Assembly: GCA_016188495.1 (NCBI GenBank)
Contig: JACPHU010000006.1
Coordinates: 1,857-65,856 of the forward strand
DNA from: Candidatus Uhrbacteria bacterium
GTDB lineage: Bacteria; Patescibacteriota; Patescibacteriia; UBA9934; GWF2-40-263
Reading direction: 5' to 3'
DNA length: 64,000 nt
How positions within the stretch are numbered: the first letter of the stretch is position 1; the number at the start of each line of letters is the position of its first letter. Below, in pieces: positions 14,712-54,164 of the stretch. The position numbers and the translations under genes were made by a program. Under the pieces are notes generated by a model. That model was not told where the DNA came from. It worked only from the letters and a program-made list of their open reading frames with translations, and made no database searches.

Positions 14712-16544
14712 ATGGCAAGTCGGAGGATTCGATTTAAATTGATCGCGACATTCTTTTTTATTTCTCTTTTCTCTGTTTCCATTATTGGTATTTTAGTTTT
14801 TTTTGCCGATCGATCCAGTTTGTTATCCGAAACAGAAGTCTCTTTGCAGGTTATTGCCAATACCCAATCTCAGGACATTCAACATTTTTTTTCTCAGCTT
14901 GAAACACGGGCGATCGATTTTTCTTCGGATGGATTTATCCGAGAGTCGACAAAGACTCTGACTCAGGAATCAAATGAAAAGGTAAAGGAAGAATTGGTCC
15001 AACATTTACGCAATAATAAGTTGCCTCTGGATGCTTCTCTTTTTGTTATCGAAGTGTTTGATTTAAAAGGTTCTTTGCTTGCGACGACCGGATCTTATCA
15101 GGCAGCTTCTTTTGATGTTTCCAAACAGATACTTGAAAATCTTTCTCCGGACACGGCTGTTCTTTCCCCTTATCTTACACACGAATCTCCTCGGGGTCTC
15201 CAGAAGGTTCTTGTCGCTCTGGCGCCTATTGTCGATAAAGAAACAAATCAACGATTGGGGTATATTGCCAATCATTATTTTTTAGATTCCCTTACAGACA
15301 TTTTAAGGATGAAAAAAACGAATCCTTCCTTCGATCAATTACTTGGTTGGAAAACATTGGAATCCAATCTCGTGTCTTCAGGGGATGTGTTGATTGCCGT
15401 TTCCGATCCTGAAGACGAAAATTTTTTAAACAAAACAACAGACTTGCACGTCTTCGGAACGGTCTGCGGCAACACTGCCTCAGTACGCCAGTATATCAGT
15501 CATAATGGAAAGGAAGCGACCGGTATTGCCCATTGCGTAAATGCGAAAAACTACCTCATTGTCGAAGTTGAATCTCAAGAAATTTTTACGCGTTTGTTCG
15601 AGACGGTCAGAAACATGGTTGCCGTAGCCATAGTAACCGTTGTTCTTATGACGGTTCTGTCACTTTTTCCTGTTCGTAAGATCATCTATCCGTTGGAAGA
15701 ACTCCGCGGAGCCGTAAGGTATTTCGGGGAAGGGAAGGGATTGAGGAGTTTCGTTTATGATAAAAAAGATGAAATTGGAGAATTGTTCCAATCATTCAAA
15801 CAGATGACAGAGAATATTCAGATGGTTGAACAGCGACGTCGGGATTTTATTTCCATTGTTTCGCATCAGATGCGCACGCCATTGACGAGTATTCGTCTGT
15901 ATATGGAATTGTTGAGGAATTCTTTGAAACGGCCAAAGGTCGTCCAGAAAGAATTTATGGATAGTATCGACATTTCGGTCGATCAGATGACGCATCTGAT
16001 TAGTGATTTATTAAACGTATCGCGTATTGAAGCTGGAAAACTCCGTATCCATCCAGTTCTCGTAGACCTCTCCGAGATCATTGGACAGGTTCTTGAGGAG
16101 ATCTCTCCGTTGGCGCAACAAAGTCGCTGTACGATACATGTTACTTCAAAAAATCCTCTTGCTTCTGTGGTTCTTGATCGAGATTTTTTTCATCAAATTT
16201 TGCGTAATTTAATCGTTAACGCCATCAAATATAGTCGTGAAGATGTCTGTGAAGTTTCACTATTTGTCGATGAAATAAAAGAAAATAAACGTTCTTTCTT
16301 AAGGATTCGAGTTCAAGATGCAGGAATCGGCATTAAGCGCGAAGATCAAGCTCATATTTTTGAAAAATTTTTTCGTTCGGAAACGGCGAGGAAACGGAAC
16401 ACGGAAGGAACGGGTTTGGGGTTGTATGTGGCGAAAATGATCCTGGATCAGACAGGAGGTTTCATTTCATTTAAATCGGAGGAGGGAATCGGAACGGTGT
16501 TTACAGTCCTGATTCCAAAGACCGGCATGTCTTCTCAAAAATAG
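14712..16544 (+). CDS. membrane sensor histidine kinase (two TM helices, extracytoplasmic sensor domain, HAMP, HisKA, HATPase_c)
   Basis: TM1 is IATFFFISLFSVSIIGILVFF and TM2 is VAVAIVTVVLMTVLSLF. The H-box is SHQMRTPLTSIRLYMELL. The ATP-lid is DAGIGIK...GTGLGLYVA. Confidence 0.9.
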   Translation: MASRRIRFKLIATFFFISLFSVSIIGILVFFADRSSLLSETEVSLQVIANTQSQDIQHFFSQLETRAIDFSSDGFIRESTKTLTQESNEKVKEELVQHLRNNKLPLDASLFVIEVFDLKGSLLATTGSYQAASFDVSKQILENLSPDTAVLSPYLTHESPRGLQKVLVALAPIVDKETNQRLGYIANHYFLDSLTDILRMKKTNPSFDQLLGWKTLESNLVSSGDVLIAVSDPEDENFLNKTTDLHVFGTVCGNTASVRQYISHNGKEATGIAHCVNAKNYLIVEVESQEIFTRLFETVRNMVAVAIVTVVLMTVLSLFPVRKIIYPLEELRGAVRYFGEGKGLRSFVYDKKDEIGELFQSFKQMTENIQMVEQRRRDFISIVSHQMRTPLTSIRLYMELLRNSLKRPKVVQKEFMDSIDISVDQMTHLISDLLNVSRIEAGKLRIHPVLVDLSEIIGQVLEEISPLAQQSRCTIHVTSKNPLASVVLDRDFFHQILRNLIVNAIKYSREDVCEVSLFVDEIKENKRSFLRIRVQDAGIGIKREDQAHIFEKFFRSETARKRNTEGTGLGLYVAKMILDQTGGFISFKSEEGIGTVFTVLIPKTGMSSQK

Positions 16545-16640: not shown

Positions 16641-17036
16641 ATGAAACAGCAACGTCTTTTACTCGTGGAAGATGAAAAGTTGATCGCTCGCGCGTATCAG
16701 CTCGCTTTGGAAAAAGAAGGATACCTCGTAGATCTTGTCTATGACGGCCAACAGGCTCTTTCGGCCATGGATACATGCACCTATGATCTGATTCTTTTGG
16801 ATCTCATTCTTCCTCACATCGACGGATTCGAGCTGATGCAGCGAAAGAATACGCAAGGAGCCTGTAAGAACACACCAATCATCGTTCTTTCAAATCTCGG
16901 ACAAGAAACGGATATTGCCAAAGCGAAAGAGCTTGGTGCTGTTAATTATTTGGTAAAAGCAGATCATTCATTGAATGATGTTCTTCGGATCGTGAAGCGT
17001 ACGCTAGAAAAACATCAAGACCGTGGAAACGAATGA
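16641..17036 (+). CDS. single-domain response regulator (CheY-like receiver)
   Basis: Receiver motifs are LLLVEDEKLIARAY, ILLDLILPHIDGFELM and IIVLSNLGQETD. Its stop overlaps the pilB start (ATGA). Confidence 0.85.
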   Translation: MKQQRLLLVEDEKLIARAYQLALEKEGYLVDLVYDGQQALSAMDTCTYDLILLDLILPHIDGFELMQRKNTQGACKNTPIIVLSNLGQETDIAKAKELGAVNYLVKADHSLNDVLRIVKRTLEKHQDRGNE

Positions 17037-18742
17037 ATGCATCTATGACACTCACTTACCAAGCATTACAAGAGATTTTTGTGGATTCAGGAGCTGTTTC
17101 CCAAGAACAGTTCAATACATTACAAGCCACGAAAGAGGCGAAGGAATTGGGTTTAGAGAGAGTTCTTGTTTCTCGCGGATTTTTATCAGAAAAGGAAGTG
17201 GGACAGCTGATGAGTTTTTGGTATCGCGTGCCCTTTGTCGAACTTTCGAAAAAAGACATTCGTCCTCAAGACGTTGTGCTTTTGCCTGAAGCGTTTGCTC
17301 GCGCGCATCATGTGCTGGTGATCAGCCAGCAACCGGAACGAGTGATCGTGGCAAGTTCCACGCCGAAAGATACCGTATTACGCTCATCCTTAGAGAAATA
17401 TTTTCGTACAGAGGTTCAATTCCAGTATGCGACAGAACACGATCTGCGCCAGCATTTTTTCTTGTACCAAGAAGATCCCGATATCCGTATCCAATCCATT
17501 TTAAAAAGAAGTCCTGTCCCCCAAGAGCAGACGGATACGCGGGTGATCGATCTGATCGATGCGATTATCGATATGGGTTATCAACGCGGCGTTTCAGATA
17601 TCCATCTGGAACCAGAAGAAGCTTATCTGGTCATTCGGTATCGTCAGGACGGACTTCTTCATGATGTTGCCCGCATTCCAGAAGCCTTTCACGAGCGGAT
17701 CATGGCTCGATTAAAAGTCCTTTCGCGCTTGGCAACCGATGAGCATCGCAAAGCGCAGGACGGAAAGATTTCCCATAAAACCCCTTGGGGAAGCGATGTG
17801 GAAATTCGCTTGTCTATTCTTCCTACTACACAAAAGGAGAAGGCCGTTATGCGTCTGCTCTCTGAGCAGGCACAGGCGTATTCGCTGGTTGAGCTAGGTT
17901 TGCAAACGGGTGATTATCAGAAAATAGCAGATGCAATGGAGAAACCATGGGGAATGATTCTGGCAACCGGTCCCACGGGATGCGGAAAGACCACCACGCT
18001 TTATGCCATGCTTCAGGTGCTCAATCGACGGGAAGTCAATATCACCACCATCGAAGATCCGGTGGAGGTCGATCTGGAGGGAATCAATCAGATTCAAGTG
18101 GATGAAAAGACCGGACTCACCTTTGCAAAAGGATTGCGTTCTATCGTGCGGCAGGATCCGGATATCATCATGGTGGGAGAGATCCGGGACAGCGAAACGG
18201 CTAGTATCGCGATCAACGCGGCGATGACAGGACATCTGGTTCTTTCGACCCTCCATACCAATGACGCGGCAACGGCGTTCGTACGACTATTAGACATGGG
18301 AATCGAACCGTTCCTTCTCTCTTCGACCGTCAATGTTGTGGTCGCTCAGCGTTTGGTACGCAAAGTCTGTATGAATTGCATCGAATCCGTGACGTTTAAT
18401 GGGACCCAGAAAAAACTATTAGAAAAGACTCCCCAAATCCAGCCTCTGCTTCTTCGGCTTGCCCAGAAGGCAACCGTACGCGGGTTGAGGGTGTTTCACG
18501 GAAAAGGATGTAAGGTATGCCACGGGAGCGGATATAAGGGACGCATAGGGGTTTTTGAAACATTGGTTGTGACAGATGAAATCCGTGAAGCGGTGATGAC
18601 GAAAAAACACGCAGACGAAATTGAGCAAATAGCCATCAGAGAAGGGATGGATTCCATGCTTACGGATGGTTTGCGCAAAGCCTTATTAGGACAAACAACG
18701 CTTGAGGAGGTTTTACGTGTGGTTTATGAAGAAGTTTTATGA
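17033..18742 (+). CDS. pilB: type IV pilus assembly ATPase PilB/GspE family
   Basis: Walker A is GPTGCGKTTTLYAML. An Asp box, Walker B (IIMVGEIRD), a His box and a C-terminal tetracysteine motif (CMNC...CKVCHGSG) are present. Confidence 0.9.
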   Translation: MNASMTLTYQALQEIFVDSGAVSQEQFNTLQATKEAKELGLERVLVSRGFLSEKEVGQLMSFWYRVPFVELSKKDIRPQDVVLLPEAFARAHHVLVISQQPERVIVASSTPKDTVLRSSLEKYFRTEVQFQYATEHDLRQHFFLYQEDPDIRIQSILKRSPVPQEQTDTRVIDLIDAIIDMGYQRGVSDIHLEPEEAYLVIRYRQDGLLHDVARIPEAFHERIMARLKVLSRLATDEHRKAQDGKISHKTPWGSDVEIRLSILPTTQKEKAVMRLLSEQAQAYSLVELGLQTGDYQKIADAMEKPWGMILATGPTGCGKTTTLYAMLQVLNRREVNITTIEDPVEVDLEGINQIQVDEKTGLTFAKGLRSIVRQDPDIIMVGEIRDSETASIAINAAMTGHLVLSTLHTNDAATAFVRLLDMGIEPFLLSSTVNVVVAQRLVRKVCMNCIESVTFNGTQKKLLEKTPQIQPLLLRLAQKATVRGLRVFHGKGCKVCHGSGYKGRIGVFETLVVTDEIREAVMTKKHADEIEQIAIREGMDSMLTDGLRKALLGQTTLEEVLRVVYEEVL

Positions 18743-19825
18743 AAAAACATGATCAACCTTGGTATAAACGCCAGATCGATTTGTTTCCGGTGCCGCAGAC
18801 GCAGATCGTTTCCTTGGTAAAAAATTTTTCTATTATGCTCGAGGCGGGAATTGCTGTGCCGGAAGCGATTGAGGTTCTCGTTGACCAGTCGTCTGGTACG
18901 CTCAAGAGCGTCATGAAAACGGTTTCTGTGCGGCTTTCGTCAGGAGAGCGTCTTTGGGAGGCATTTTCTCATGCGCAACGAGTTTTTTCTCCGATTTTTT
19001 TAAGCGCGGTACAGGCAGGAGAGGCTTCTGGAACGCTCGCGGGAAATCTGTCTCATGTTGCCGCGCAGATGGAACAAGACTCGTCTCTTAGGCGTTCTAT
19101 TGAAGGGGCTCTTTTGTATCCCGGCGTCGTGGTGTCCGCCACGCTTATTCTCGGATTATTATTGGCAACATTCGTTTTGCCCGAACTCGCTTCCGTTTTC
19201 GCTTCGTTGAATATGCCCCTTCCTTGGAGCACAAAAACGCTTCTGTGGCTTGCCGGCATGTTTGCCCAAGACGGCTATTGGCTGACTCCGCTGCTTATTT
19301 TTTCTCTCTTCGGTTTGGTTGTTTTATGGCGCCAGCGCTTTTTGTCGCCTGTTACAGATGTTATCATTTTGCGTTTACCGGGATTAGGTCTTTTTTTTTC
19401 ACAATATCGCTCGGGCGCATTTTTGCCGAGGCATGGGCACGTTGCTTGAATCCGGAATTCCACTACAAGAAGCATTGCAGATTCAGGTCCAATCGATAGA
19501 GAATCATGCCTATCAACGGTCAGTGCTATCGATGGTTGACCAGGTTGCCTCCGGAGAAGGATTCGCGCAAGCGCTCGCCCGATATCCCCGTCTTTTTCCT
19601 CTTTTGATCCAGCGGATGGTTTTTGTCGGAGAACATTCAGGCAGACTCGACCAGCTCTTCTTTTTTCTCGCCCGATTTTATGAAGAAGATGTATCGTTGC
19701 GGGCAAAAAATCTTTCTTCGGTTATTGAGCCTCTCTTGCTAATGGTGATCGGTCTTGGGGTCGCGTTTGTCGCTTTTTCTATTTTTACGCCTATTTATTC
19801 CATTACCAGCGGTCTGGGCTTATGA
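18739..19825 (+). CDS. pilC: type IV pilus platform protein PilC/GspF, interrupted by a +1 frameshift inside a T9 homopolymer (19391-19399)
   Basis: The ORF-track pieces 18739-19449 and 19433-19825 are consecutive GspF domains. The upstream frame reads LPGLGLFF. The downstream frame, read back from 19433, gives FFFHNIARAHFCRGMGTLLESGIPLQEALQI. Joined, they give a canonical PilC junction. Confidence 0.8.
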
Positions 19826-20259
19826 GAGCTCAAGGAGGATTTACCATGATCGAACTTCTGATGAGTCTGGCGATCGCAGGCATTGTTTTGGCAGTTTCGC
19901 CTCTGACGTTTGGTTCTTTTCAGGAACAACACCAGATAGAGTTCGCTGTGCAGGCAAGCGCACAGGCATTGAGAAGAGCTCAGATACAGGCTCAAGCAGT
20001 GGCAAACGACCAAACATGGGGAGTCTTTTTTCAAAATGGAAGTGTGACGATTTTTCAGGGTTCAAGCTATGCAGCGCGCAACAGCGCTTTTGATGAGGAT
20101 CAACAGATTGCGCCGGAGGTGACCCTGGGAGGTGTTGCGGAGGTAGTCTACAGTAAACTGACCGGCGAACCTCAAACAACAGGAGTCATCACATTTGAAA
20201 CCCTGCATGAAACACGAACGTTGACGCTCCTTGAAAAAGGGGCTTTATCCTATGACTAA
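19822..20259 (+). CDS. prepilin-type minor pilin/pseudopilin (N-terminal methylation motif)
   Basis: The leader plus hydrophobic helix reads GGFTMIELLMSLAIAGIVLAV, with Gly-1, Phe+1 and Glu+5. Confidence 0.75.
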   Translation: MRAQGGFTMIELLMSLAIAGIVLAVSPLTFGSFQEQHQIEFAVQASAQALRRAQIQAQAVANDQTWGVFFQNGSVTIFQGSSYAARNSAFDEDQQIAPEVTLGGVAEVVYSKLTGEPQTTGVITFETLHETRTLTLLEKGALSYD

Positions 20260-21649
20260 TCAAGGATTTTCTCTTGTGGAGGTGATAGTGGCGATCGCCT
20301 TGCTAGGCATTGTTGCTCTTGGATTTGTCCGGTGGTTGGTTGTCGCCCAGGAGAACGTGGTTTTTTCCGGACAACGCACTCGCGCACTGTTTCTTGCAGA
20401 AGAAGGTTTAGAGGCCGTGCGGAATATGCGAGATGACGATTTTTCTTTGTTGACAAACGGAACTCACGGGTTGGCTGTAAGCGGTTGGCAATGGATTTTT
20501 TCCGGATCGTCCGATACAACAGATCTTTTTACGCGAGAAGTGACGGTTTTCCCTGTGGATGCGGATCGTAAAGAAGTGATGTCACAAATTACTTGGAATC
20601 AAACACCTTATCGTTTAGCTTCATTAGAACTCGTGACGTATCTCACCAACTGGCAGGCGGGCAATGCTCAGCCTATTCCGATTACGCCGGACGCAACGTT
20701 GAATCTTGCCGGCCCTGCGAATGGGACGGAAGTCGCTCTTTATACGGATGGAGGAACGACTTATATTTTGCTCGGACGCGTTTCTTCTAGCGAAAAGGAG
20801 TTTTATGTGATCAATGTGTCAGATCCTTCCAATCCGGTTGTTACAGCCGAACTTGAAATTGGAAGCGATGTGAATGGTGTGGCGGTTGTCGGGTCTTATG
20901 CGTTTCTTGCCACGTCAAGCAATACGGCTGAACTTCAGGTCGTCAATCTTACGAATCCTGCGAGCCCCACCTTTGCAGGAAGTTCGAATTTAGCTGGAAA
21001 CGCAGATGCAATCACTGTTGTCGGACAAGGATCAAATCTTTATGTAGGGCGCGCGTCCAATAGCAGCGGGCCAGAAATTTTTTCCCTTTCGATTGCCACA
21101 CCATCGTCTCCGAGCGTGCTTTCGAGTTTGGAAGTGGGGGATAGTGTTTGGAAAATGGTTTTGGATCAAAGCGCAAGTTTTGTGTACGCGGCAACAGGAA
21201 GCACGACAGCAGAATTACTTATTGTGAATACAACGACACCATCCTCGATTGTTCAAGAAGGTGCATTAAATATTTCTGGAACGACAGACGCAACCGCGAT
21301 CGCCGTTTTTTCAACATACACAGCACTTGGAATGGACGATGGAAATTTTTATGTGGTTGATACGTCCACACCCGCCTCTCCCTTCCTTGCAAGTAGCGCG
21401 CTTGATATTGGAATCAAAATAAACGATATGGCCATGGGGGTGGACGATGACTATCTTTTTGCTGGAAGCGGAACCGTTAATACGGAAGTGGCGGTCATCA
21501 ATGTCAGCGATCCCTCATCGCCGACCATCTATTTTTCTGTTGATCTTGCAGGTAATGAAGCGAAAGGATTGATTTGGGATCAGACATTGAATCGAGTTTT
21601 CGGAGGCGGAACGGGGAATACGGAAGAATTTTTCGTGCTTATTCCTTGA
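20231..21649 (+). CDS. prepilin-type minor pilin fused to a beta-propeller made of LVIVD repeats
   Basis: The N-terminus is NQG|FSLVEVIVAIALLGIV. Five repeats of the LVIVD type follow: YVINVSDPSNP, LQVVNLTNPASP, LLIVNTTTPSS, FYVVDTSTPASP and VAVINVSDPSSP. There is a TTG start at 20231 and an alternative ATG at 20252. Confidence 0.75.
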   Translation: MKKGLYPMTNQGFSLVEVIVAIALLGIVALGFVRWLVVAQENVVFSGQRTRALFLAEEGLEAVRNMRDDDFSLLTNGTHGLAVSGWQWIFSGSSDTTDLFTREVTVFPVDADRKEVMSQITWNQTPYRLASLELVTYLTNWQAGNAQPIPITPDATLNLAGPANGTEVALYTDGGTTYILLGRVSSSEKEFYVINVSDPSNPVVTAELEIGSDVNGVAVVGSYAFLATSSNTAELQVVNLTNPASPTFAGSSNLAGNADAITVVGQGSNLYVGRASNSSGPEIFSLSIATPSSPSVLSSLEVGDSVWKMVLDQSASFVYAATGSTTAELLIVNTTTPSSIVQEGALNISGTTDATAIAVFSTYTALGMDDGNFYVVDTSTPASPFLASSALDIGIKINDMAMGVDDDYLFAGSGTVNTEVAVINVSDPSSPTIYFSVDLAGNEAKGLIWDQTLNRVFGGGTGNTEEFFVLIP

Positions 21650-21650
21650 T

Positions 21651-22163
21651 ATGAGTATTTTTGAACATAACAAGGGATTTACTCTCGTGGAGCTTGTGGT
21701 GTATATCGGTTTGGCTTCGATCGTCTTTCTTGCCGTTATCGGCCAACAGATGACGTTTTTACAGATGAGAGTGAAGCATCAGACGATTGCCCAAGTGGAA
21801 CAGGAAGGACAGTTTGTGATGCAGCTCATCACGCAAACGCTCAGGAATGCGCAAGCGATCAATAGTCCGCCTGCTGGATCGAGTGCCAGCATCCTTTCCA
21901 TAGACGTGTTTGACGCAGTAGATGATCCTACGGTGTTTGATGTTTCCGGCGGACAGATTCGATTGACTCAAGGGAGTGCTGCAGCCGTTGAGATAACTTC
22001 CGGATTATTAAGCGTTGCGTCTTTTACTATTGAGAACGTATCCCGTCTTGATACTCCTGGGTCTGTACGAATCCAATTTACTCTTTCACGGATCAATGCC
22101 GGGGGGGTGATTCCGTATGCGTATGAAAAAACTTTTTATGGTACAGCGTCTTTACGGCCATAG
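21651..22163 (+). CDS. prepilin-type pseudopilin
   Basis: The N-terminus reads KGFTLVELVVYIGLASIVFLAVI. Confidence 0.7.
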   Translation: MSIFEHNKGFTLVELVVYIGLASIVFLAVIGQQMTFLQMRVKHQTIAQVEQEGQFVMQLITQTLRNAQAINSPPAGSSASILSIDVFDAVDDPTVFDVSGGQIRLTQGSAAAVEITSGLLSVASFTIENVSRLDTPGSVRIQFTLSRINAGGVIPYAYEKTFYGTASLRP

Positions 22164-22566
22164 AAGATGGAGAGGAACGAATCAGCAGGGATTCGTTGTA
22201 TTGTTGAGCATGCTTATGTTAACAGTTGTCGGGATGGCGCTATTGAGCTCTCTGCTGTTGTTTGGGATCATGGATGTGCAGTCAAGTTTTTCTCTTGAGC
22301 AATCAGGCCAGGCGCGCGCTCTTGCAAATGCCTGCGCAGAAGAAGCGTTGCAACAGATCAACGACGCCGTTTCTTTTTCAGGATCGAGCAGTCTTTCGTT
22401 AAGCACAGGAACCTGTAATTATACGGTTATCAGTTTATCCGGTTCTCAACGAGAGATTGAATCTGTAGGGACGGTAGGATCTAGCGTCCGCAAGGTATTG
22501 GTAACACTCGACCAGATTAACCCAAATATTCACGTTACCTCTTGGCAGGAAGTGAGCGATTTTTAA
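22117..22566 (+). CDS. PilX-like minor pilin (start uncertain)
   Basis: A hydrophobic N-terminal helix QQGFVVLLSMLMLTVVGMALL is followed by a PilX_N-like GQARALANACAEEAL segment. It overlaps the upstream gene by 47 nt, so the true start may be internal. Confidence 0.55.
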   Translation: MRMKKLFMVQRLYGHRRWRGTNQQGFVVLLSMLMLTVVGMALLSSLLLFGIMDVQSSFSLEQSGQARALANACAEEALQQINDAVSFSGSSSLSLSTGTCNYTVISLSGSQREIESVGTVGSSVRKVLVTLDQINPNIHVTSWQEVSDF

Positions 22567-22573
22567 ATCAGAT

Positions 22574-23524
22574 ATGCCTATTTTTCCTATCGGAATCGGT
22601 ATCGATCTCTCGGACACGTATGTACATGTGGCCAAGGTGTCTTATTTTGGTCGGATCATAGAGGTACAGGAAAGAGAAATCCCTTCGGGATGGGTGGTCG
22701 ATGAGAAGGTGGTTGAATCTGAAAAACTCAAGTTTTTCTTACAAAAGAATTGTTTTTCACAAGAACAGATTCTCAGATCGCGCGTGGCAATCCTTATTCC
22801 TGAATCGAGAATGTTCCGGTGTTCACTTCGACTCCCTAAAGACAAGAAAAAGCCGCTGAGAAGTGCTGTTGTAGATTTAGCCCAAAGAGAGATTCCGTTC
22901 CCTTTGTCGTCAGCTGATGTTCTTATGAATTTTTCTCAACAGAAAAATGAGATGTTCGCTGACGTGGAGGCTGTTGAAGGCGAGGTGATCAAGAATCTCG
23001 TTGCCGCTGTTCCGCAGGAACATAACCACCTGAAGGTGGTGGAACCCCGTTCCCGGGCATTGTTGGATATGGCGAACATGCGCGGTTTATTACCTAGTGG
23101 TTTTGTTGGGTTTGTTGATGCCAATGAAAGATGGGTCACGATCACGATATTCAACAAAGGACAGGTCGTGTATTCCCGCGCGATCCGTCAGCCGATTTCT
23201 TTTGATCAAAACCAAAAAAAGGTCCCTTCCGTTTTCGTTGATTTTTTAAACGATCTCTTAGACGAAATCGTGTTATACTATCAAGAGGATCATAAGATGA
23301 TTGACCGTTTTATTCTTTCAGGTCTTTTTTTTACCGATCAGCGTTTCCGAGGACCATTCAAGACAAGTCATGGGGAGGTGAGAATAGAATTTATCGACGA
23401 TCTTTTTTCTCTGAAAGAGAAAAAAATACCACATCTTTTTTTTGGCATGGCGGCTATAGGAGCTGCATTTTCCGCTACGCGGTTCACAACGTTTTCTCGT
23501 CCATGTAATTTTTTTCGTCTATGA
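22574..23524 (+). CDS. pilM: type IV pilus assembly protein PilM (actin-like ATPase fold)
   Basis: The N-terminus IGIGIDLSDTYVHVAKV is the PilM signature. The length is 316 aa. Confidence 0.7.
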   Translation: MPIFPIGIGIDLSDTYVHVAKVSYFGRIIEVQEREIPSGWVVDEKVVESEKLKFFLQKNCFSQEQILRSRVAILIPESRMFRCSLRLPKDKKKPLRSAVVDLAQREIPFPLSSADVLMNFSQQKNEMFADVEAVEGEVIKNLVAAVPQEHNHLKVVEPRSRALLDMANMRGLLPSGFVGFVDANERWVTITIFNKGQVVYSRAIRQPISFDQNQKKVPSVFVDFLNDLLDEIVLYYQEDHKMIDRFILSGLFFTDQRFRGPFKTSHGEVRIEFIDDLFSLKEKKIPHLFFGMAAIGAAFSATRFTTFSRPCNFFRL

Positions 23525-24060
23525 GTACGAACACTAATTTTAAGCAAGGTTTTACCCTTGTCGAGCTTCTTATCGTGATTGCGATCGTGGCTATTTTGGT
23601 CGCCGTGATCTTTGTGGCGTTGGATCCTGCCACGCGTTTTTCCCAAGCGCGCGATGCTGTCCGTCAAAATGACGTCGGTGAAATTCTTTCCGCAATCAAA
23701 CTTTACCAGGTCGATAACGGAGGCGATCATCTGGCCAGTATTGCTGCTCTGACGCCGGGAGACGTTTATATGGCAGTCAACGGTGCTGTTATGACAACAG
23801 GTTGCGATGATGGTAATCTCAGTTGTGATACAGATGTCACAACTGATACGGCTTGTGTGAATATTGCCGGTCTTGTGACAGGGGGGTATTTAGCATCCAT
23901 GCCTGTGAGTCCTTCGGGTGATGTCGCGTGGGATGATGGAAGCGGCGCTGCAGATGATGGAAGCGGATATACTCTTTCTATTGATGCCAATGGTATCGTA
24001 GCTGTTCGTGCGTGTGAGAGTGAATATGCAAATAATTCTGAAATTCAAATCTCACGATAA
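23521..24060 (+). CDS. type IV major pilin (paralog 1)
   Basis: The N-terminus reads KQG|FTLVELLIVIAIVAILVAV. Two Cys pairs lie in the C-terminal D-region. Confidence 0.85.
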   Translation: MSTNTNFKQGFTLVELLIVIAIVAILVAVIFVALDPATRFSQARDAVRQNDVGEILSAIKLYQVDNGGDHLASIAALTPGDVYMAVNGAVMTTGCDDGNLSCDTDVTTDTACVNIAGLVTGGYLASMPVSPSGDVAWDDGSGAADDGSGYTLSIDANGIVAVRACESEYANNSEIQISR

Positions 24061-24066
24061 GTTCGT

Positions 24067-24597
24067 ATGCCTTACGTTAAGAAATTAGGTTTCACGCTTG
24101 TTGAATTGCTGATCGTGATTGCCATCATTGGCGTTCTGGTTGCTGTGATTTTTGTGGCGCTGGATCCTGCTACGCGCCTTGCGCAAGCACGTGACGCGGT
24201 GCGTCAAAACGATGTTGGAGAAATCCTTTCAGCGATCAAGTTGTATCAGGTAGATCATGGAGGACAGTCGTTAGATACGATCGCAAATCTTTCTCAGCTT
24301 GATGTCTATATGGCCGTCGATGGTGGCGGGATGAATGAAGGGTGTGATGACAATAATGTTTCTTGTACGACTCCTGTAACGCACGATACGCATTGCGTAA
24401 ATATTCATGAATTAATTCAAGAAGGATATTTGGCTGATATGCCCGTGAGTCCTTCCGGAGAGGTGATATGGGATGTTGGGGATAACACAGGTGATAACGG
24501 ATCAGGGTATACGATTTCTCTTGATACTGAGGGAATCGTGACCGTTCGTGCTTGTGAAAATGAGGCAACAAGTGTCGAAATTCAAGCTTCGAGATAA
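24067..24597 (+). CDS. type IV major pilin (paralog 2, tandem duplicate, about 65% identical to paralog 1)
   Basis: It reads LG|FTLVELLIVIAIIGVLVAV. The block structure is shared with the previous gene (DAVRQNDVGEILSAIKLYQVD, MPVSPSG, VRACE). Confidence 0.85.
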   Translation: MPYVKKLGFTLVELLIVIAIIGVLVAVIFVALDPATRLAQARDAVRQNDVGEILSAIKLYQVDHGGQSLDTIANLSQLDVYMAVDGGGMNEGCDDNNVSCTTPVTHDTHCVNIHELIQEGYLADMPVSPSGEVIWDVGDNTGDNGSGYTISLDTEGIVTVRACENEATSVEIQASR

Positions 24598-24804: not shown

Positions 24805-24881
24805 GGGCGTGTAGCTCAGGTGGTTAGAGCGCAACACTGATAATGTTGAGGTCGGAGGTTCGAGTCCTCCCACGCCCACCA
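24805..24881 (+). tRNA. tRNA-Ile (anticodon GAT)
   Basis: The acceptor stem is GGGCGTG/CACGCCC. The D-arm is AGCTCAGGTGGTTAGAGC, the anticodon loop is CTGATAA and the T-loop is GGTTCGAGTCC. The 3' end is A-CCA. Confidence 0.9.
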
Positions 24882-25016: not shown

Positions 25017-25091
<75 letters not shown>

Positions 25092-25209: not shown

Positions 25210-27228
25210 TTAGTAGAGCTCATCAATGCTGTCGGTTGTCTTTTTTGCATTTTCTGATGAGTAGTCTGTACTGCTATGAATCGTACTACCGATTTCGTAG
25301 CTTCCGTAAAATACGTCGTTGACTCCATCGATGCTGTTTGTCCAGTCTGTTCCAAATAAGGTTTCAGCGATTTCGCCATTGGCAATGGCGCGTAGCACGC
25401 CACCATAGGAGACAGCGTAGACCGTATTTGAGAGGAATTGAACCAGTTTTACTCCAGGTCGATGAGTCACGTTGCTTCCCAAGGGAATTTCAGACATTGC
25501 CGTACTAGAGAGAATGACGAGATCGTCGAAATCTGAAAACCAGGTATAAAAAATAGATTCGGTAGGGAATGCATGGCGTTTTCCGTCGGCTCCGTAGTAG
25601 TAGACAGGGGTACAAGGGTCATTCACATAGACATCTCCCTCGCAACCTATTTTAATCAAATCACCTCGCGACGCATGGTTTGAACCTGAACTTACGGTTA
25701 CGATTGTATTTTTTCCTGTTGTTTTATTTCCGTCATCGTCGGTACAGCGAGCGTAGAGTTCTTTGGTTCCATTTGAAGTAAATGTATGAGTGAGAGAGGC
25801 GATGTCCAAGAGAATCGTCATAGTCCCAACGTTTTCATCATCGATATACAGATCACACGATTCTATTGACCCATCGTCACTAATTCTTACAGAGTATGTG
25901 ACGCTTTCATTTTTAAGCGCCGTGGTAGGTAAGATCGCTTTTACCACAGGGGCACTGCTTGAGGCTGAATCAGCGTCTACGGTAAAATTAATGCTTACAG
26001 ATGTGCTTATATTTCCAACAAGGTCAATCGCATAGAGGGAAGCCGTGTGACTTCCATTTGTTAGAGTTATCGTAGGAGTGTAGGCCGTTGTTTTTCCAAT
26101 GTTCGCATAAGAAGCAGAGTCTAGCTTAAATGCATAACTTGCTATCGAAGATTCGTTATCGACTGCTGCCGTCCATGTGAAAGTAGGGGTTGTGTCCGTT
26201 AATGCGCTTGAGTCTCCTGTTACACTGAATGAAGTTGGTTTTTCTGGAGAAGTCGCATCGTAGCGGAAGATATCTCCATTAATACCCACGCCCCAACGCA
26301 CATCTGAAGAAACATAAGAAAGATCGAAAAGGGCTGTTGATTGAGAGGAAGAAATACTGGTCCAGGTTGTTCCGCCATCGGATGTTTGGAGTAATGTCCC
26401 GTTTAGTCCCGCCAGAATTCCATTTGATTTATCTCGAAAAGCAATGTCATTAATCGTTTCATTTGTTTCAAGACCAGATACGCTACTTACGCTCCATGTG
26501 CTTCCGCCATTGGTTGTTTTTAAAAGTGTTCTATTTTCTCCACCAATCCATCCATTTGATGAATCGACAAAAGACATAGCATTCAAGAGTTGTGTGGTTC
26601 CCGATGTAGAGGTCGTCCATGTTGTCCCCGTATCTGAACTTGAATAGATGGCACCACCTTCTCCAGCAATAATAATTTTTGTAGAACTGATTGCTCGTGC
26701 CGTGTATAAATCTGTTGTTGAGAGTTCTGCGATGGAAATATTTATTTGATTCCAACTGACACCGCCATCTGTTGTTTTAAGGACGGTTCCACTTTGACCT
26801 ACAGCAAATCCAATAGAGGAACTGGCCATCGTAATCGTATAAAGACTGGGTGAGGAATTAGTATTTGATGAAAGTAAAGAAGGAGAGATACTTTTCCATG
26901 TTTTTCCTCCATCTGTTGTTCGTCTGATGGTAGCGGAGTTTCCTACGGCTACAGCCGTACTCTCACTTAAGGCGTACACATCATTTAATTCAAAAGACGT
27001 TCCGCTTGATCCTTGGGACCAGGTTTTTCCGCTATCGTTGCTATAAAGAATCGTTCCTTCAGTTCCTACGGCGAAGAGCGTGTTTCCCGATAAGCTAATT
27101 CCTATAAGGGTGCTATTTACCGAAGAGTTATTGAGAGCCCATCCAGAAGCCCAAGTGATAGAAGGAAAAAAAAGAATGGTTACAAAGAGTGATAAAATAA
27201 AAAGAAAAGAACGATGGTATTTTTTCAT
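25210..27228 (-). CDS. secreted BNR/Asp-box repeat beta-propeller protein with C-terminal Ig-like/FN3-like domains
   Basis: It has a signal peptide (MKKYHRSFLFILSLFVTILFFPSITWA). At least six S-x-D-x-G-x-T-W Asp-box repeats follow (SNDSGKTWS, TTDGGKTWK, TTDGGVSWN, SSDTGTTWT, TTNGGSTWS, TSDGGTTWT). The distal part is Thr/Ser-rich beta-strand. Confidence 0.8.
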   Translation of the reverse strand: MKKYHRSFLFILSLFVTILFFPSITWASGWALNNSSVNSTLIGISLSGNTLFAVGTEGTILYSNDSGKTWSQGSSGTSFELNDVYALSESTAVAVGNSATIRRTTDGGKTWKSISPSLLSSNTNSSPSLYTITMASSSIGFAVGQSGTVLKTTDGGVSWNQINISIAELSTTDLYTARAISSTKIIIAGEGGAIYSSSDTGTTWTTSTSGTTQLLNAMSFVDSSNGWIGGENRTLLKTTNGGSTWSVSSVSGLETNETINDIAFRDKSNGILAGLNGTLLQTSDGGTTWTSISSSQSTALFDLSYVSSDVRWGVGINGDIFRYDATSPEKPTSFSVTGDSSALTDTTPTFTWTAAVDNESSIASYAFKLDSASYANIGKTTAYTPTITLTNGSHTASLYAIDLVGNISTSVSINFTVDADSASSSAPVVKAILPTTALKNESVTYSVRISDDGSIESCDLYIDDENVGTMTILLDIASLTHTFTSNGTKELYARCTDDDGNKTTGKNTIVTVSSGSNHASRGDLIKIGCEGDVYVNDPCTPVYYYGADGKRHAFPTESIFYTWFSDFDDLVILSSTAMSEIPLGSNVTHRPGVKLVQFLSNTVYAVSYGGVLRAIANGEIAETLFGTDWTNSIDGVNDVFYGSYEIGSTIHSSTDYSSENAKKTTDSIDELY

Positions 27229-27412: not shown

Positions 27413-28910
<1,498 letters not shown>

Positions 28911-37770: not shown

Positions 37771-40044
37771 TTATCTTCTCGCCGTTGCTCCGCTTGTCAC
37801 GTCTTCCAAGTGAATAGACAGAAGGTTTGAGATCCCTTCTTCACCCATGGTCACTCCGTACAGAACATCGGCTTGTTCCATAGTCGCACGGTTGTGAGTA
37901 ATGATGATGAACTGGGAGTTCTTGGAGAGTTCTTGAAGGATCGAGGCAAAACGGATGGTGTTGGATTCGTCCAGTGCCGCGTCTACTTCATCCAAGAGTA
38001 CAAATGGAGAGGGATTTACGGCCATGATCGCGCTGATGAGGGCGATAGAGGTCAACGCACGTTCTCCTCCAGAGAGAAGATTGAGTGCTTTGAGTTTTTT
38101 GCCGGGAGGCGTGGCTTGAATTTCTACACCGATGATTGGATCTTGATGTTTTTCAAGTTTTTCTTCTATGAGTTCCTCTTTTCCTCGAGCTTCCTCACCC
38201 GTGTCTGAGAACGCACGCTCTGCGGAAACTTCCGTTTCTGGTTCAGGGAGAAGTTCTTCGCGCGTAAGTTTTACCAAAGCGCAAGATCCTCCTCCGAAAA
38301 GCATTTTGAAATACCGTTCGAATTCTTTGTTGATTTTTTGAAAGATCGTCTTAGATTGCTTATCGATTTGTTCGTCTAATTCTTCGATTACCTGTTCGGT
38401 CGCTTTGATTCCTTTTTTTAAATCGTCGATCTGTCCATCTAAGAATTCGTAGCGTTCACGGGTCTCTTCATATTCTTTCATGATTTCCGGATCGATTCCC
38501 CCGATGATTTCAAGTTTATAACGCAGTCGTTGGATTTCGCTGTAGACATCGGCGGGTTGGGGCGAAGCCTGTTCCTGGGTTGGACGGTTGGATCGAATCA
38601 CGACCGCGCGTTCTTTCAGAAATTCATTCATTTCTCGGATGAGTCCTTGCTGGCGTTCCTCAAATCGCGCTAGGTTGATCTGCATGTCATTACGGCGATT
38701 TTCAAATAAATGGATTTGTCGTTGTTTTTCGCGCAACGCCCGTTGGGTTTCAATGAATTCCGTGCGTTCGGTTTTTTCCTGCTTGGCGTAAGCGTCTATC
38801 TGTGTTTCCAAGACTTTTTGTTCCTGTTCAGCGACTCGTTCTTGTTCTTTGAGATCTTTCAATTTTTGTACAAGGATAGGATCCGGTTTGATGTCTTCTG
38901 GATTGGGACGTTGAAGATTTTTAGAAAGCTTACCGGAGCGTTCCAAGAGGGCGTCGATTTTTTCAAGAATTTCAGAGAGTTCTTTTTTGTCTTTAAGTTG
39001 GCGTAATTCTTCTACGAGCCAATCGACTTCTTGCACGATTTTTAACAGCGGCAATGGAGCCCAATTGGATTGCGCCCGCACACGTGCGAGTTCGATGTTT
39101 TTTTCGGTTTGGAATTGTTCATTGCGGAGGTTGCTGTGCTTTTGCTGCGCTGCGCGATAGGCTTGCTGCAGCTTGATCAACCCCTCGTCTGGCGCCTGAT
39201 CGACCTGTTCGAGCTTATCGACGGCAGCTTCCAGCTCCGTGAGTGCTTTTCTTTCCAGTTTGATCGCATCGTTGCTTTGTTCAAACTGATGTTTTGCCTG
39301 TTCTAATTGATCGATTAATGTCCACCATTGGTCTCCATAATAGAGAGTTTCCAGTGTATGAAGTTGTGTTTGTACTTCTTCCCGCTGCTCAAGCCGGCTT
39401 ACTTGTCTTTTGAGCGAACGCAATCGCGGTTCGATTTCGCGCAATAACATCTCGACGTCGATTAAGTTTTCATGCGTGCGTTTGAGTTTTAAAATCGCTT
39501 CATGCCGTTTGATCTGAAAGGGCTTAACGCCTGTGGCATCATCAAAAAAAGCTTTGCGTTCCTCAGGGGTGGAGACCAAAATGTGATCAATCATGCCTTG
39601 ACCTACGACCGAATACGAACGTTGACCGACATTGGCTTGAGCTAAAAGCAAATGGATATCCTGTAGACGCGCGTGCGTTTCGTTGAGAAGATATTCAGAC
39701 GTTCCATCTCGAAACAAGCGGCGAGTAATCGTGACATGGGGATATTCAATCGGCATGGACGAGTCTTCGTTATTGAGACAGATGCTGACTTCTGCAAAAC
39801 CGGCTCGTCCTTTTCCTTCAGAACCCGAAAAGATGACATCTTCAGAATTTTTTCCACGCAGCAATTTGAGACTCTGTTCCCCCAAAACCCACCGGATGGC
39901 ATCAGCAAGATTGGATTTTCCCGACCCGTTGGGTCCCACAATCGCGGTAATGGGTGTTCGATCCTCGGTGGGTGGCAGGAAAGAAAGAGCTGTTTTTTTT
40001 GCAAAGGTTTTAAACCCCTGGAGTTCGATTTTCGTCAGATGCAT
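37771..40044 (-). CDS. smc: SMC-family ATPase, short form (757 aa) without a recognizable hinge domain
   Basis: The N-terminal Walker A is ITAIVGPNGSGKSNLADAIRWVLGEQS. The C-terminal signature is LSGGERALTSIALISAI with Walker B VLLDEVDAALD. The ~400-aa middle is pure coiled coil with no Gly-rich hinge and no CxxC hook. Confidence 0.8.
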   Translation of the reverse strand: MHLTKIELQGFKTFAKKTALSFLPPTEDRTPITAIVGPNGSGKSNLADAIRWVLGEQSLKLLRGKNSEDVIFSGSEGKGRAGFAEVSICLNNEDSSMPIEYPHVTITRRLFRDGTSEYLLNETHARLQDIHLLLAQANVGQRSYSVVGQGMIDHILVSTPEERKAFFDDATGVKPFQIKRHEAILKLKRTHENLIDVEMLLREIEPRLRSLKRQVSRLEQREEVQTQLHTLETLYYGDQWWTLIDQLEQAKHQFEQSNDAIKLERKALTELEAAVDKLEQVDQAPDEGLIKLQQAYRAAQQKHSNLRNEQFQTEKNIELARVRAQSNWAPLPLLKIVQEVDWLVEELRQLKDKKELSEILEKIDALLERSGKLSKNLQRPNPEDIKPDPILVQKLKDLKEQERVAEQEQKVLETQIDAYAKQEKTERTEFIETQRALREKQRQIHLFENRRNDMQINLARFEERQQGLIREMNEFLKERAVVIRSNRPTQEQASPQPADVYSEIQRLRYKLEIIGGIDPEIMKEYEETRERYEFLDGQIDDLKKGIKATEQVIEELDEQIDKQSKTIFQKINKEFERYFKMLFGGGSCALVKLTREELLPEPETEVSAERAFSDTGEEARGKEELIEEKLEKHQDPIIGVEIQATPPGKKLKALNLLSGGERALTSIALISAIMAVNPSPFVLLDEVDAALDESNTIRFASILQELSKNSQFIIITHNRATMEQADVLYGVTMGEEGISNLLSIHLEDVTSGATARR

Positions 40045-51367: not shown

Positions 51368-51530
51368 GCTCTCTTCGTTCATTGGCAAAGTCTGGCTTGC
51401 CACGCCTTAAATACTCTTACATCAAAGTATTTAGAGCGCGGTAAGTCAGTAATAAAAAAAGTAGTTGATAGTCACCGGCATGGTTGTTGGTGGCTCAGAA
51501 ATCCAATCCCGAAAGGGAAGGAGAAAGCAA

Positions 51531-52613
51531 ATGTTGAATGAACAGTTCAAGGTCGCTCTGGTTGCCGAAGGTGTCAACGAGGAGAATCTCAAGCTCCTCG
51601 AGTCTCAGGAGCTGTGTGATGTCAGCGATTTCGCGACCCTGCAGCCTGCGGATCTGACTGTCGTCGGAATGAAGCTCGGTGGGATCAATAAGGTCTTCAG
51701 GGTTGTTCGAAGACTGGCGGCTCCCGTGGCCTCCACTCCGGCTCCGGAAGTTCAGATTCCCGTGACTCAGGTGACCCCGGTGTCCCTTCCTCCGGTCGTT
51801 CCGGTTCAGGTGGCTCCCGTGGCCCATGCTCCGGTTTCCTCCGGTGGGGGAGATCTGGGTACGCTGTTTTCGACGCTGATTCCGCCCCAGACCCCGCAGG
51901 AAGCGGCCGAAAGGCTCTGTCGTGCCCCGAGTGACGCAAAGAGCCAGGAGTACTGGAGGCAGTTCTTCGGTCAGGAGACCCTGATCGTCTCCTCGACTCC
52001 GGGCTCCATCGATCGCGACAAGACCATGGAAGCGGTCGAAATCTGGGTGACCTCCGGTGAGGCTCCTTCGGAGCTCGATGGAGTGCCTCTGCTGAGCATC
52101 AGCGAGTTCCTCCAGTCCACCTTCGGTGCGTGCCCCTTCACCGGGGACCGTATCATCCGAGGTGGGATGTCGCTGAAGACCAACGTTCACTACGGGTTCT
52201 TGCTCGGGAATGATGTTTCGCTCTCGGCGATCCAGAATAGCCCCGGAATGAACTTCGTGGCGTTCGCCGCCGAAACCGGCAAGATCACCCGCGACCTTCA
52301 GACCTGGAAGACGCGGATGCTCGAGCTTCGCAGCATGGTCCAGGGCAAGGATATCTCCAGCCCCACGGCCATCAAGGCGGCCGTCGCCGGATCCGCGTGG
52401 GATGAAGTCGCGACCGACTACATCCGTGACGCCAATTCCGGTGGTGTCGTCGCCATGCGCGCTCGGGCACGGCTGGTGACCCAGGCCAAGCGACGGACCG
52501 TTCGGGCCCGCAACGACCTGTCGGGAATCGGAGAGGCTCTGACCTCCGGTTTCGACAAGGTCACCCGCCAGGACGGCTCCGTCCCCCGTCGGGATTTCGA
52601 ATCCCGCGGCTGA
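51531..52613 (+). CDS. island gene A: hypothetical protein (small N-terminal domain, Pro/Val-rich linker, unknown C-terminal domain)
   Basis: A GGAAGGAG RBS precedes ATG 51531. Its GC3 is much higher than the backbone. The linker is APVASTPAPEVQIPVTQVTPVSLPPVVPVQVAPVAHAPV. A terminator follows at 52728-52752. Confidence 0.65.
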   Translation: MLNEQFKVALVAEGVNEENLKLLESQELCDVSDFATLQPADLTVVGMKLGGINKVFRVVRRLAAPVASTPAPEVQIPVTQVTPVSLPPVVPVQVAPVAHAPVSSGGGDLGTLFSTLIPPQTPQEAAERLCRAPSDAKSQEYWRQFFGQETLIVSSTPGSIDRDKTMEAVEIWVTSGEAPSELDGVPLLSISEFLQSTFGACPFTGDRIIRGGMSLKTNVHYGFLLGNDVSLSAIQNSPGMNFVAFAAETGKITRDLQTWKTRMLELRSMVQGKDISSPTAIKAAVAGSAWDEVATDYIRDANSGGVVAMRARARLVTQAKRRTVRARNDLSGIGEALTSGFDKVTRQDGSVPRRDFESRG

Positions 52614-52727
52614 TAGATCGATCAACTCCGTCGGTTCCGACCATGACGGCGCAAGGGTAGCACTCAGTGCCCGGTGTCTGGTTGGACCTTCGGCCATTAC
52701 TCTATTACCCCTACGAAGGGAGTCCCC

Positions 52728-52752
52728 TGGACTCCCTTTTTCACTAGGCGAT
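52728..52752 (+). terminator. intrinsic terminator after island gene A
   Basis: The hairpin gggagtcc/ggactccc is followed by a T6 run. Confidence 0.7.
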
Positions 52753-52856
52753 TTATTTTCAAAATGAATCGTGTAGCGAAAGCATGTAGGCTTTCAATCA
52801 GTATTTTAGATCGGTCCTTTTGGATCGATTGTGTTCACAACAAAGGAGAGAATTCA

Positions 52857-54014: not shown

Positions 54015-54164
54015 TTTCCGACGTAACACGGTCAAGATCGATTCCCACGGAGTCGGCCCTTGACCCTTTTCTTGGGAAGAGAAGAGGAGTAATCCTTTGG
54101 CTCTTCTGAAGAGAAGAAATTTGCTTTCGACCTTTACAAATGAAGTTGAGATAAGGAGGTTTAG

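Follow-up and report, generated by a model that had tools for sequence, protein, structure and literature searches.

Introduction

Patescibacteria, which live attached to other microbes, contribute a large part of bacterial diversity. The closest described relatives of the protein considered here are the modular pilins, a concept put forward by Raynaud et al. (2021) in PNAS (PMC8179133), whose prototypes are PilB (a pilin module with a vWA module) and PilC (a pilin module with a ConA-like lectin) of Streptococcus sanguinis. Here, we describe a gene of an ultrasmall bacterium of Candidatus Uhrbacteria (Patescibacteria) whose product is, by sequence criteria, a type IV minor pilin fused to a module predicted to form a seven-bladed LVIVD beta-propeller. 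The gene occupies positions 20231..21649 (+) of a stretch of 64,000 nucleotides (nt) from contig JACPHU010000006.1, called the window below. As in the modular pilins of Raynaud et al., an N-terminal pilin module is followed by a short linker and a bulky module that is not specific to pili, the predicted location is the pilus tip and the added module would provide binding. Unlike in the prototypes, the cargo is a seven-bladed LVIVD propeller, and the gene sits in a complete set of minor-pilin genes (H, I, J and K), whereas the HIJK set of S. sanguinis is replaced by PilABC (PMC10191384).

The combination of a prepilin with LVIVD repeats is already catalogued, and the protein belongs to the known class of modular pilins. 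Dataset S1 of Raynaud et al. lists IPR012902-IPR013211(xN) in seven architectures totalling 30 proteins (8+8+7+4+1+1+1), IPR013211 being the database entry for the LVIVD repeat, and the text of the same study describes an 860-residue pilin from Falkowbacteria in which this "motif of unknown function" occurs 12 times (PMC8179133). The fusion had been proposed in an initial sequence-only reading of the window; it is real and widespread in Patescibacteria, but less novel than that reading implied, as it is annotated at NCBI and contained in the dataset of Raynaud et al. Beyond that dataset, the searchable literature was not found to link LVIVD with pilins or with Patescibacteria. Nor did we find in it any mention of a conserved patescibacterial pilB-pilC-HIJK operon with an LVIVD pilin as I subunit, of an LVIVD-pilin carrier shared by many alternative heads, or of a uniformly acidic LVIVD-pilin head.

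A minor pilin bearing a propeller is also known from the Saccharibacteria, where PilX2 of Nanosynbacter lyticus TM7x (locus TM7x_02975-02995) combines an RCC1-type propeller with the lack of a predicted PilD signal and a locus containing only pilins (Grossman et al., 2024; PMC11623550). This description sets PilX2 apart from the Uhrbacteria protein, which has a canonical prepilin signal, LVIVD repeats and a pilB-pilC-HIJK operon, and in which a Pfam scan gave no RCC1 match. Similarly, the PilY1/PilC tip adhesins of diderm type IVa pili (T4aP; IPR008707) place a propeller at the tip beside four core minor pilins, PilY1 serving both adhesion and priming. However, PilY1 is a non-pilin bound non-covalently to the minor-pilin complex, whereas in the present case propeller and I subunit are one covalent chain; no Neisseria_PilC/PilY1 family appeared in the Pfam scan of the protein at E <= 10, and PilY1 was absent from its top 50 Foldseek matches. 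With GspI, PilV (PilI) and ComGE, core minor pilins of tip complexes of the GspK-GspI-GspJ type, the protein shares the position within H-I-J-K, a small pilin module with Glu5 and its best, though weak, hidden Markov model (HMM) matches. Canonical I subunits, in contrast, comprise ~100-140 amino acids (aa) without an extra domain, the bulk being found on K (GspK); here, the I subunit carries the bulk and K is small. Finally, surface proteins of bacteria and archaea with PF08309 belong to the same repeat family and likewise have four-stranded units that form a propeller. LVIVD proteins are typically secreted in free form or associated with the S-layer and often contain PKD domains, whereas the propeller described here is anchored through a pilin.

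A prepilin and a propeller in one open reading frame

The gene is one unbroken open reading frame (ORF) encoding 472 aa from a TTG at 20231 or 465 aa from an ATG at 20252, with its stop codon at 21647-21649. An identical NCBI protein of Candidatus Uhrbacteria has 465 aa, so the start taken there is the ATG at 20252, and residues are numbered on this 465-aa protein throughout. The leader preceding G/FSLVE (the slash marks the predicted cut) has 12 residues from the TTG start or five from the ATG start, reading MKKGLYPMTNQG from 20231 or MTNQG (20252..20266, +). As a canonical class III signal, MTNQG/FSLVEVIVAIALLGIVALGF (also quoted as MTNQG/FSLVEVIVAIALLG), it is predicted to be cut by prepilin peptidase after Gly5, which would leave a mature N-terminus FSLVE with Glu at mature position 5 (G-1, F+1, E+5). 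The protein shows a short charged leader ending in Gly, a hydrophobic residue at +1, Glu at +5 and the ~20 hydrophobic residues of the N-terminal part of the alpha1 helix (alpha1N). With the Pfam family N_methyl (PF07963) the protein reaches 30.4 bits (gathering threshold, GA, 21.2; E 2.6e-7) and with TIGR02532 26.9 bits (cutoff 16.3), while E10 is invariant and G5 nearly invariant across 58 aligned relatives. By these sequence criteria the protein is a type IV prepilin, and its cleavage and incorporation into a filament are predicted.

The prepilin signal leads into a pilin carrier module (residues 6-132; 20267..20647, +), which is weakly PilV/GspI/ComGE-like, and a linker (residues 133-144; 20648..20683, +) connects the carrier to the propeller (residues 145-465; 20684..21646, +). 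The propeller is indicated by Pfam, AlphaFold2, Foldseek and inspection of the repeats. Thus, Pfam LVIVD (PF08309) matches four stretches of the protein with 33.1 bits (GA 20.2, E 3.5e-8), and Beta_propel (PF09826) reaches 24.2 bits (GA 22.4). The sequence-only reading had reported a canonical prepilin N-terminus followed by at least five LVIVD repeats and had proposed a search with the Pfam family and a structure prediction as checks, and all of this has held. The five quoted repeats are present, starting at residues 184, 228, 322, 366 and 413, and with two further degenerate repeats, IFSLSIATPSSP near residue 274 and EEFFVLIP at the C-terminus, the total comes to seven units, which start at nt 20684, 20837, 20969, 21113, 21251, 21383 and 21524 (+).

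An AlphaFold2 model built on a 58-sequence family alignment is confident overall, with a mean predicted local distance difference test score (pLDDT) of 92.2 and a predicted template-modeling (TM) score of 0.73. It comprises a pilin lollipop made up of the alpha1 helix (residues 8-59) and a small antiparallel beta-sheet (70-132), the short and flexible linker, at low confidence around residues 137-140, and, from 145 to 464, ~28 strands that form seven units of four, their pLDDT mostly exceeding 90. In the model these units close into a seven-bladed propeller, and the best Foldseek matches in the Protein Data Bank (PDB) are seven-bladed propellers, namely WDR55, G-beta, RACK1 and beta-TrCP, with TM-scores (normalized to target length) of 0.75-0.80 at 10-16% identity. 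There is no specific solved relative, a sequence profile search of the PDB returned nothing below E = 0.009, and a Foldseek search against viral structures returned generic propellers only. The pilin module modeled separately reaches a pLDDT of 93.0.

The two modules differ in how strongly they are conserved. Mean identity to the query in the family alignment is 46% for the pilin module versus 31-35% for the propeller, and column entropy is lowest in the C-terminal part of alpha1 (alpha1C) and in the pilin sheet, the linker having the highest entropy and the most frequent indels. Only two propeller positions, G249 and E321, are invariant, both being repeat-structural, and among the loop classes the NPxxP turns from strand 4 to strand 1 are conserved. 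The propeller contains no Cys, and Gly, Ala, Ser and Thr together make up 42% of its residues, compared to 20-26% in the cytoplasmic controls PilB, PilM, response regulator and RpoC. A high content of these four residues has been used as a signature of exposed pilins in Saccharibacteria (PMC11623550), and the difference from the controls fits an exposed pilin. Four LVIVD strands of the protein read V-N-x-S/T (VINVSD, VVNLTN, IVNTTT and VINVSD; window positions 20800-21500) where the family consensus is V-I-D-I-S-N, and they thereby place N-x-S/T sequons on the propeller.

Many propeller proteins act as hydrolases or lyases. The operon could be pictured as encoding a pseudopilus like that of the type II secretion system (T2SS) or an enzyme displayed at the tip, the propeller being either catalytic or a dock for a secreted effector with the host envelope as its target. 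Matches of GspG, GspH and GspI type, a seven-bladed propeller phosphotriesterase (5hrm) among the fold matches and weak matches to choice-of-anchor B and selenium-binding-protein families are in line with this idea, and tip pilins of type IVb pili are known to dock secreted effectors, as in CofB-CofJ (PMC10191384). We nevertheless consider it improbable: the invariant G249 and E321 are structural residues of the repeat and do not belong to any conserved catalytic constellation, the profile matches to enzyme families stay far under their thresholds, and the exchange of the cargo for fn3 or lectin modules, described below, favors binding over catalysis.

The propeller pilin occupies the I position of a pilus operon

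The gene stands second in a row of four minor-pilin genes (H-I-J-K), which follows pilB-pilC and precedes the major-pilin genes. A histidine kinase (14712-16544, +) and a CheY-like response regulator with a single domain (16641-17036, +) directly precede a PilB/GspE-type extension ATPase with an N-terminal MshEN domain according to Pfam (17033..18742, +) and the PilC/T2SSF platform protein (18739..19825, +). The H-position minor pilin (19822..20259, +; 145 aa, GspH/ComGD-like, Glu5 present) overlaps the ATG start of the propeller pilin by 8 nt, and the J-position minor pilin (21651..22163, +; 170 aa, Glu5 present) starts 2 nt past its stop, with weak matches to HpsC, PRK10557 (prepilin peptidase-dependent protein) and ComGF. 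The K-position minor pilin (22117..22566, +; at most 149 aa), weakly ComGG-like, has the signal G/FVVLL without Glu5 and is the predicted apical subunit. A PilM-like protein (22574..23524, +), found in the operon only in close Uhrbacteria relatives, and two tandem major-pilin paralogues, both GspG/ComGC-like (23521-24060 and 24067-24597, +), complete the cluster.

The assignment of the four small pilins follows from several observations. Pfam N_methyl was found in four further prepilins of the operon, the K-like ORF having no Pfam match at all, and the NCBIfam matches, weak but in order, pair H with GspH/ComGD, I with PilV/GspI/ComGE, J with HpsC/PRK10557/ComGF and K with ComGG. These pairings agree with the H/I/J/K equivalences across T4aP, T2SS and Com systems given in Table 1 of a recent review (Pelicic, 2023; PMC10191384). 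In the window and the related loci, Glu5 is kept in H, I, J and the major pilins, whereas, of the 61 K-like ORFs with a detected signal, 46 have Leu or Ile in its place, and a K without Glu5 in an H-I-J-K set is a hallmark of the tip-priming complex (PMC10191384). The propeller gene therefore lies where an I gene is expected, between an H-like and a J-like gene that are followed by a Glu5-less K-like gene, beside the ATPase and platform genes. The reading of the protein as a minor pilin of the pilus tip, originally made from its own letters, is strengthened by this context.

The linkage of the response regulator to pilB, together with the MshEN domain of PilB, suggests a conserved signal control of pilus extension. 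Across the 82 related loci described below, the CheY-like regulator lies directly upstream of pilB in most cases, often with a PAS/CHASE/HAMP histidine kinase on one or both flanks. The two major-pilin paralogues are nearly identical for ~50-55 residues past the leader (FTLVELLIVIAI..LVAVIFVALDPATR..QARDAVRQNDVGEILSAIK), and their C-terminal parts appear to differ; the tandem could provide a heteropolymeric pilus or alternative major subunits. In the window, two overlapping ORFs (18739-19449 and 19433-19825) take the place of a single pilC, and alignment with the unbroken PilC from a related Uhrbacteria locus puts the frame switch precisely on a T10 homopolymer (~19391-19401). PilC is a single ORF of 360-380 aa in nearly all of the 82 loci, with two exceptions, and the frame change is probably a sequencing or assembly indel, possibly slipped-strand phase variation.

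Patescibacteria, which lack nucleotide synthesis, are thought to scavenge DNA, and the sequence-only reading had considered DNA as one possible ligand. The weak ComGD, ComGE, ComGF and ComGG matches in the right order, together with an operon that lacks a retraction ATPase and a secretin, are compatible with a Com-like DNA-uptake pilus with the propeller as its DNA receptor. The charge of the proteins points the other way. The propeller has a net charge of -26 and a pI of ~4.05, its counterpart is net negative in all 58 aligned relatives (range -4 to -46), and both major pilins are very acidic as well (-15 and -17). Moreover, no nucleic-acid-binding domain was found in the Pfam and NCBIfam profile scans of the protein, and the other cargoes of this carrier (fn3, Kelch, lectin) have folds of the adhesion type and not DNA-binding ones. 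DNA binding is thus disfavored and a DNA receptor very improbable; it was dropped as a lead hypothesis on account of the acidic charge.

Distribution across Patescibacteria

A word-indexed protein search gave at least 273 homologues. Among the 120 of them that were listed, nearly all match more than 90% of the query and have ~450-495 aa, and their sources include Uhrbacteria, Gracilibacteria, Jacksonbacteria, Taylorbacteria and Dojkabacteria. A scan of species-representative genomes with a single peptide pattern derived from the carrier found this pattern in 228 genomes, adding Komeilibacteria, Colwellbacteria, Staskawiczbacteria, Moranibacteria, Kaiserbacteria, Paceibacteria, Doudnabacteria, Saccharibacteria, Peregrinibacteria/Peribacteria and WWE3 to the list. 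For synteny, the operon proteins of the window were searched against the ORFs of 82 fetched loci, and essentially all of these have the same genes in the same order and orientation, i.e., (histidine kinase)-response regulator-PilB-PilC-H-I-J-K-major pilin(s). Four of the loci with this operon are from environmental Saccharibacteria.

These numbers also bear on the trivial explanation that a mis-assembly or a gene-call error has joined a pilin gene to a separate gene for an LVIVD surface protein. The apparent frameshift in the adjacent pilC shows that the assembly is not error-free. The propeller gene itself, however, is a single uninterrupted ORF, its homologues, with near-full-length matches, were assembled independently, some on contigs of 0.7-1.1 Mb, and the AlphaFold2 model is confident and continuous across the junction. 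A chimera was rejected on these three grounds, and we regard it as vanishingly improbable.

The same operon occurs in 11 of the loci whose records are titled Gammaproteobacteria, Bdellovibrionales, Nitrospirota or Weeksellaceae. These oddly titled loci carry either LVIVD pilins that are 34-38% identical or the carrier at ~50% identity, and they probably represent mislabelled or contaminated bins of metagenome-assembled genomes rather than a genuine spread beyond Patescibacteria.

Alternative heads on one carrier

Some of the loci match the pilin module only, at ~50% identity, and the I subunits of different lineages vary widely beyond this module. The I subunit has ~200 aa without an extra Pfam domain in Daviesbacteria and Collierbacteria, 514-631 aa with fn3 domains in Liptonbacteria and Buchananbacteria, and ~615 aa with a larger LVIVD module in Peregrinibacteria, Peribacteria and some Gracilibacteria. 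Since the lineages with a propeller-less I subunit of ~200 aa keep the whole operon, the propeller is a cargo and not a requirement for assembly.

The 137-aa carrier alone was searched against 1.84 billion representative proteins and matched 3,155 representative clusters at E <= 1e-3 (1,162 at E <= 1e-10) with lengths of ~140-1,300 aa. A propeller of the LVIVD type was found in 65 of the 150 best matches and in 48 of the 49 proteins of 440-500 aa among them. In the remaining 85, fn3 occurs in 12, and a Kelch propeller, a Laminin_G_3 domain (a ConA-like lectin) and a BclA_C/TNF-like domain in one protein each, most of the 85 having no Pfam cargo domain. The carrier is thus a conserved adaptor that bears several alternative heads, and the propeller is the one met with most often. 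On a neighbor-joining tree of the 150 carriers (130 columns), 46 cargo changes were counted against 48.7 +/- 3.0 in shuffles, i.e., there is no excess clustering of cargoes, which reflects either very frequent exchange or a poorly resolved tree of 130 columns.

Such variation is informative with respect to another explanation, in which the propeller would be a structural cap or priming device that stabilizes the complex, blocks retraction of the tip through the wall or senses contact with a surface, much like PilY1 or the alpha-domain of GspK. The gene does lie within the H-I-J-K priming set, PilY1 and minor pilins prime T4aP assembly (cited in PMC10191384), K is small (149 aa) and without a bulky domain so that the bulk is on I instead, and no conserved site for a ligand was recognized in the propeller. 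On the other hand, many lineages keep the operon with a propeller-less I subunit or with unrelated fn3, Kelch or lectin modules, to which an essential structural role fits poorly and an exchangeable binding cargo better, and a TM7x strain deleted for pilX2 still forms filaments. A structural cap is therefore unlikely.

A candidate host-binding head at the pilus tip

Taken together, we regard the protein as a bimodular type IV minor pilin, probably the I subunit of a tip-priming complex with the propeller as a host-binding cargo. A prepilin peptidase encoded elsewhere would cleave H, I, J and K, which would then assemble on the PilC platform into a complex that primes filament assembly and ends up at the distal tip, with the Glu5-less K at the apex and I just beneath. 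The placement of I in this complex would imply one copy per pilus at the distal end, so that there would be one propeller, tethered to the tip, on each pilus. The propeller would recognize a structure on the surface of the host cell, either a glycan or a protein, to which the episymbiont attaches, while the conserved carrier would secure incorporation into the pilus. The different heads that other lineages have on the same carrier (larger LVIVD modules, fn3, Kelch, ConA-like lectin, unrecognized domains or none) suggest a conserved adaptor with an exchangeable adhesive head.

A role of the propeller in adhesion or host recognition is most likely by analogy with two described cases. In S. sanguinis, the modular pilins PilB and PilC act as adhesins (PMC8179133), and when PilX2, the minor pilin of TM7x that bears a propeller, was deleted, host binding fell from 10.6% to 4.6%, filaments still being made (PMC11623550). 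The sequence-only reading had advanced the protein as a candidate adhesin of the pilus tip; the prepilin-propeller fusion and the tip context have been borne out, and the adhesin role itself would follow from these analogies.

Several points weigh against this interpretation. We infer the tip location, the stoichiometry of one copy and the ligand. The carrier can only weakly be placed in the GspI/PilV class, as this placement combines gene order with HMM scores that are below threshold, i.e., 24.2 bits versus 52.2 for PilV, 21.7 versus 44.35 for GspI (with a match spanning positions 1-96 of 101) and 20.0 versus a cutoff of 49 for ComGE, no I-class equivalog cutoff being reached. A fold search of the PDB with the AlphaFold2 model of the carrier gave no significant match, and a profile search of PDB sequences with the carrier matched only the alpha1N of geopilin and PilA. 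Within the propeller, the conserved residues are mostly repeat-structural (the Glu preceding each LVIVD strand and the NPxxP turns), no conserved candidate binding site or pocket was found in the family alignment, and the variability of the loops marks no single face, none being clearly hypervariable; repeat-structural conservation without a conserved pocket fits ligands that are specific to each lineage. The genes of the 64-kb window include neither PilD (the prepilin peptidase) nor PilT, nor a secretin, and the frameshift in pilC, if real, could render the operon inactive in this genome.

A far-reaching extension of the proposed role would see the I-position pilin as a plug-and-play tip adaptor throughout Patescibacteria, the exchangeable head as the primary determinant of host recognition, head swapping as a driver of host switching and the fusion as a covalent, monoderm-style equivalent of PilV-PilY1. 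As a whole, this extension is speculative and rather doubtful at present.

Other features of the window

Two tRNA genes (24805-24878 and 25017-25088) separate the pilin genes from a 672-aa protein encoded on the opposite strand just downstream of the pilus operon (25210-27228, -). It contains BNR/YCF48-like and Sortilin-Vps10 propeller repeats together with Big_13 and PKD domains, has a net charge of -29 and a content of Gly, Ala, Ser and Thr of 44%, and is a putative second surface propeller protein.

Further downstream, a complete 16S rRNA gene of 1,496 nt without a large insertion occupies 27415-28910 (-). No 23S or 5S match was found anywhere in the window, so the rRNA genes appear to be unlinked.

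Canonical bacterial SMC proteins are expected to be much longer than the 757 aa of an SMC_N-family protein encoded at 37771-40044 (-), in which the Pfam match covers residues 3-739. Between 51400 and 56200, the G+C content is raised, reaching 0.58 at 52-54 kb compared to ~0.45 for the window, and long ORFs overlap on both strands, e.g., 51465-52613 (+) with 51495-52697 (-) and 52674-54014 (+) with 53010-54035 (-). A Pfam scan of ORFs of this region, limited to the + strand, gave no match.

Implications for Patescibacteria

With modular pilins and propeller-bearing tip proteins both being established, the locus does not represent a new kind of system. A recent review has called for testing tip-located minor pilins in the host recognition of Patescibacteria (PMC11665869), and the I subunit of the pilB-pilC-HIJK operon is the best candidate for a tip head-piece, being conserved, easily recognized and present in at least 228 species-representative genomes. 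Its modular head gives studies of host recognition and host range a concrete target.

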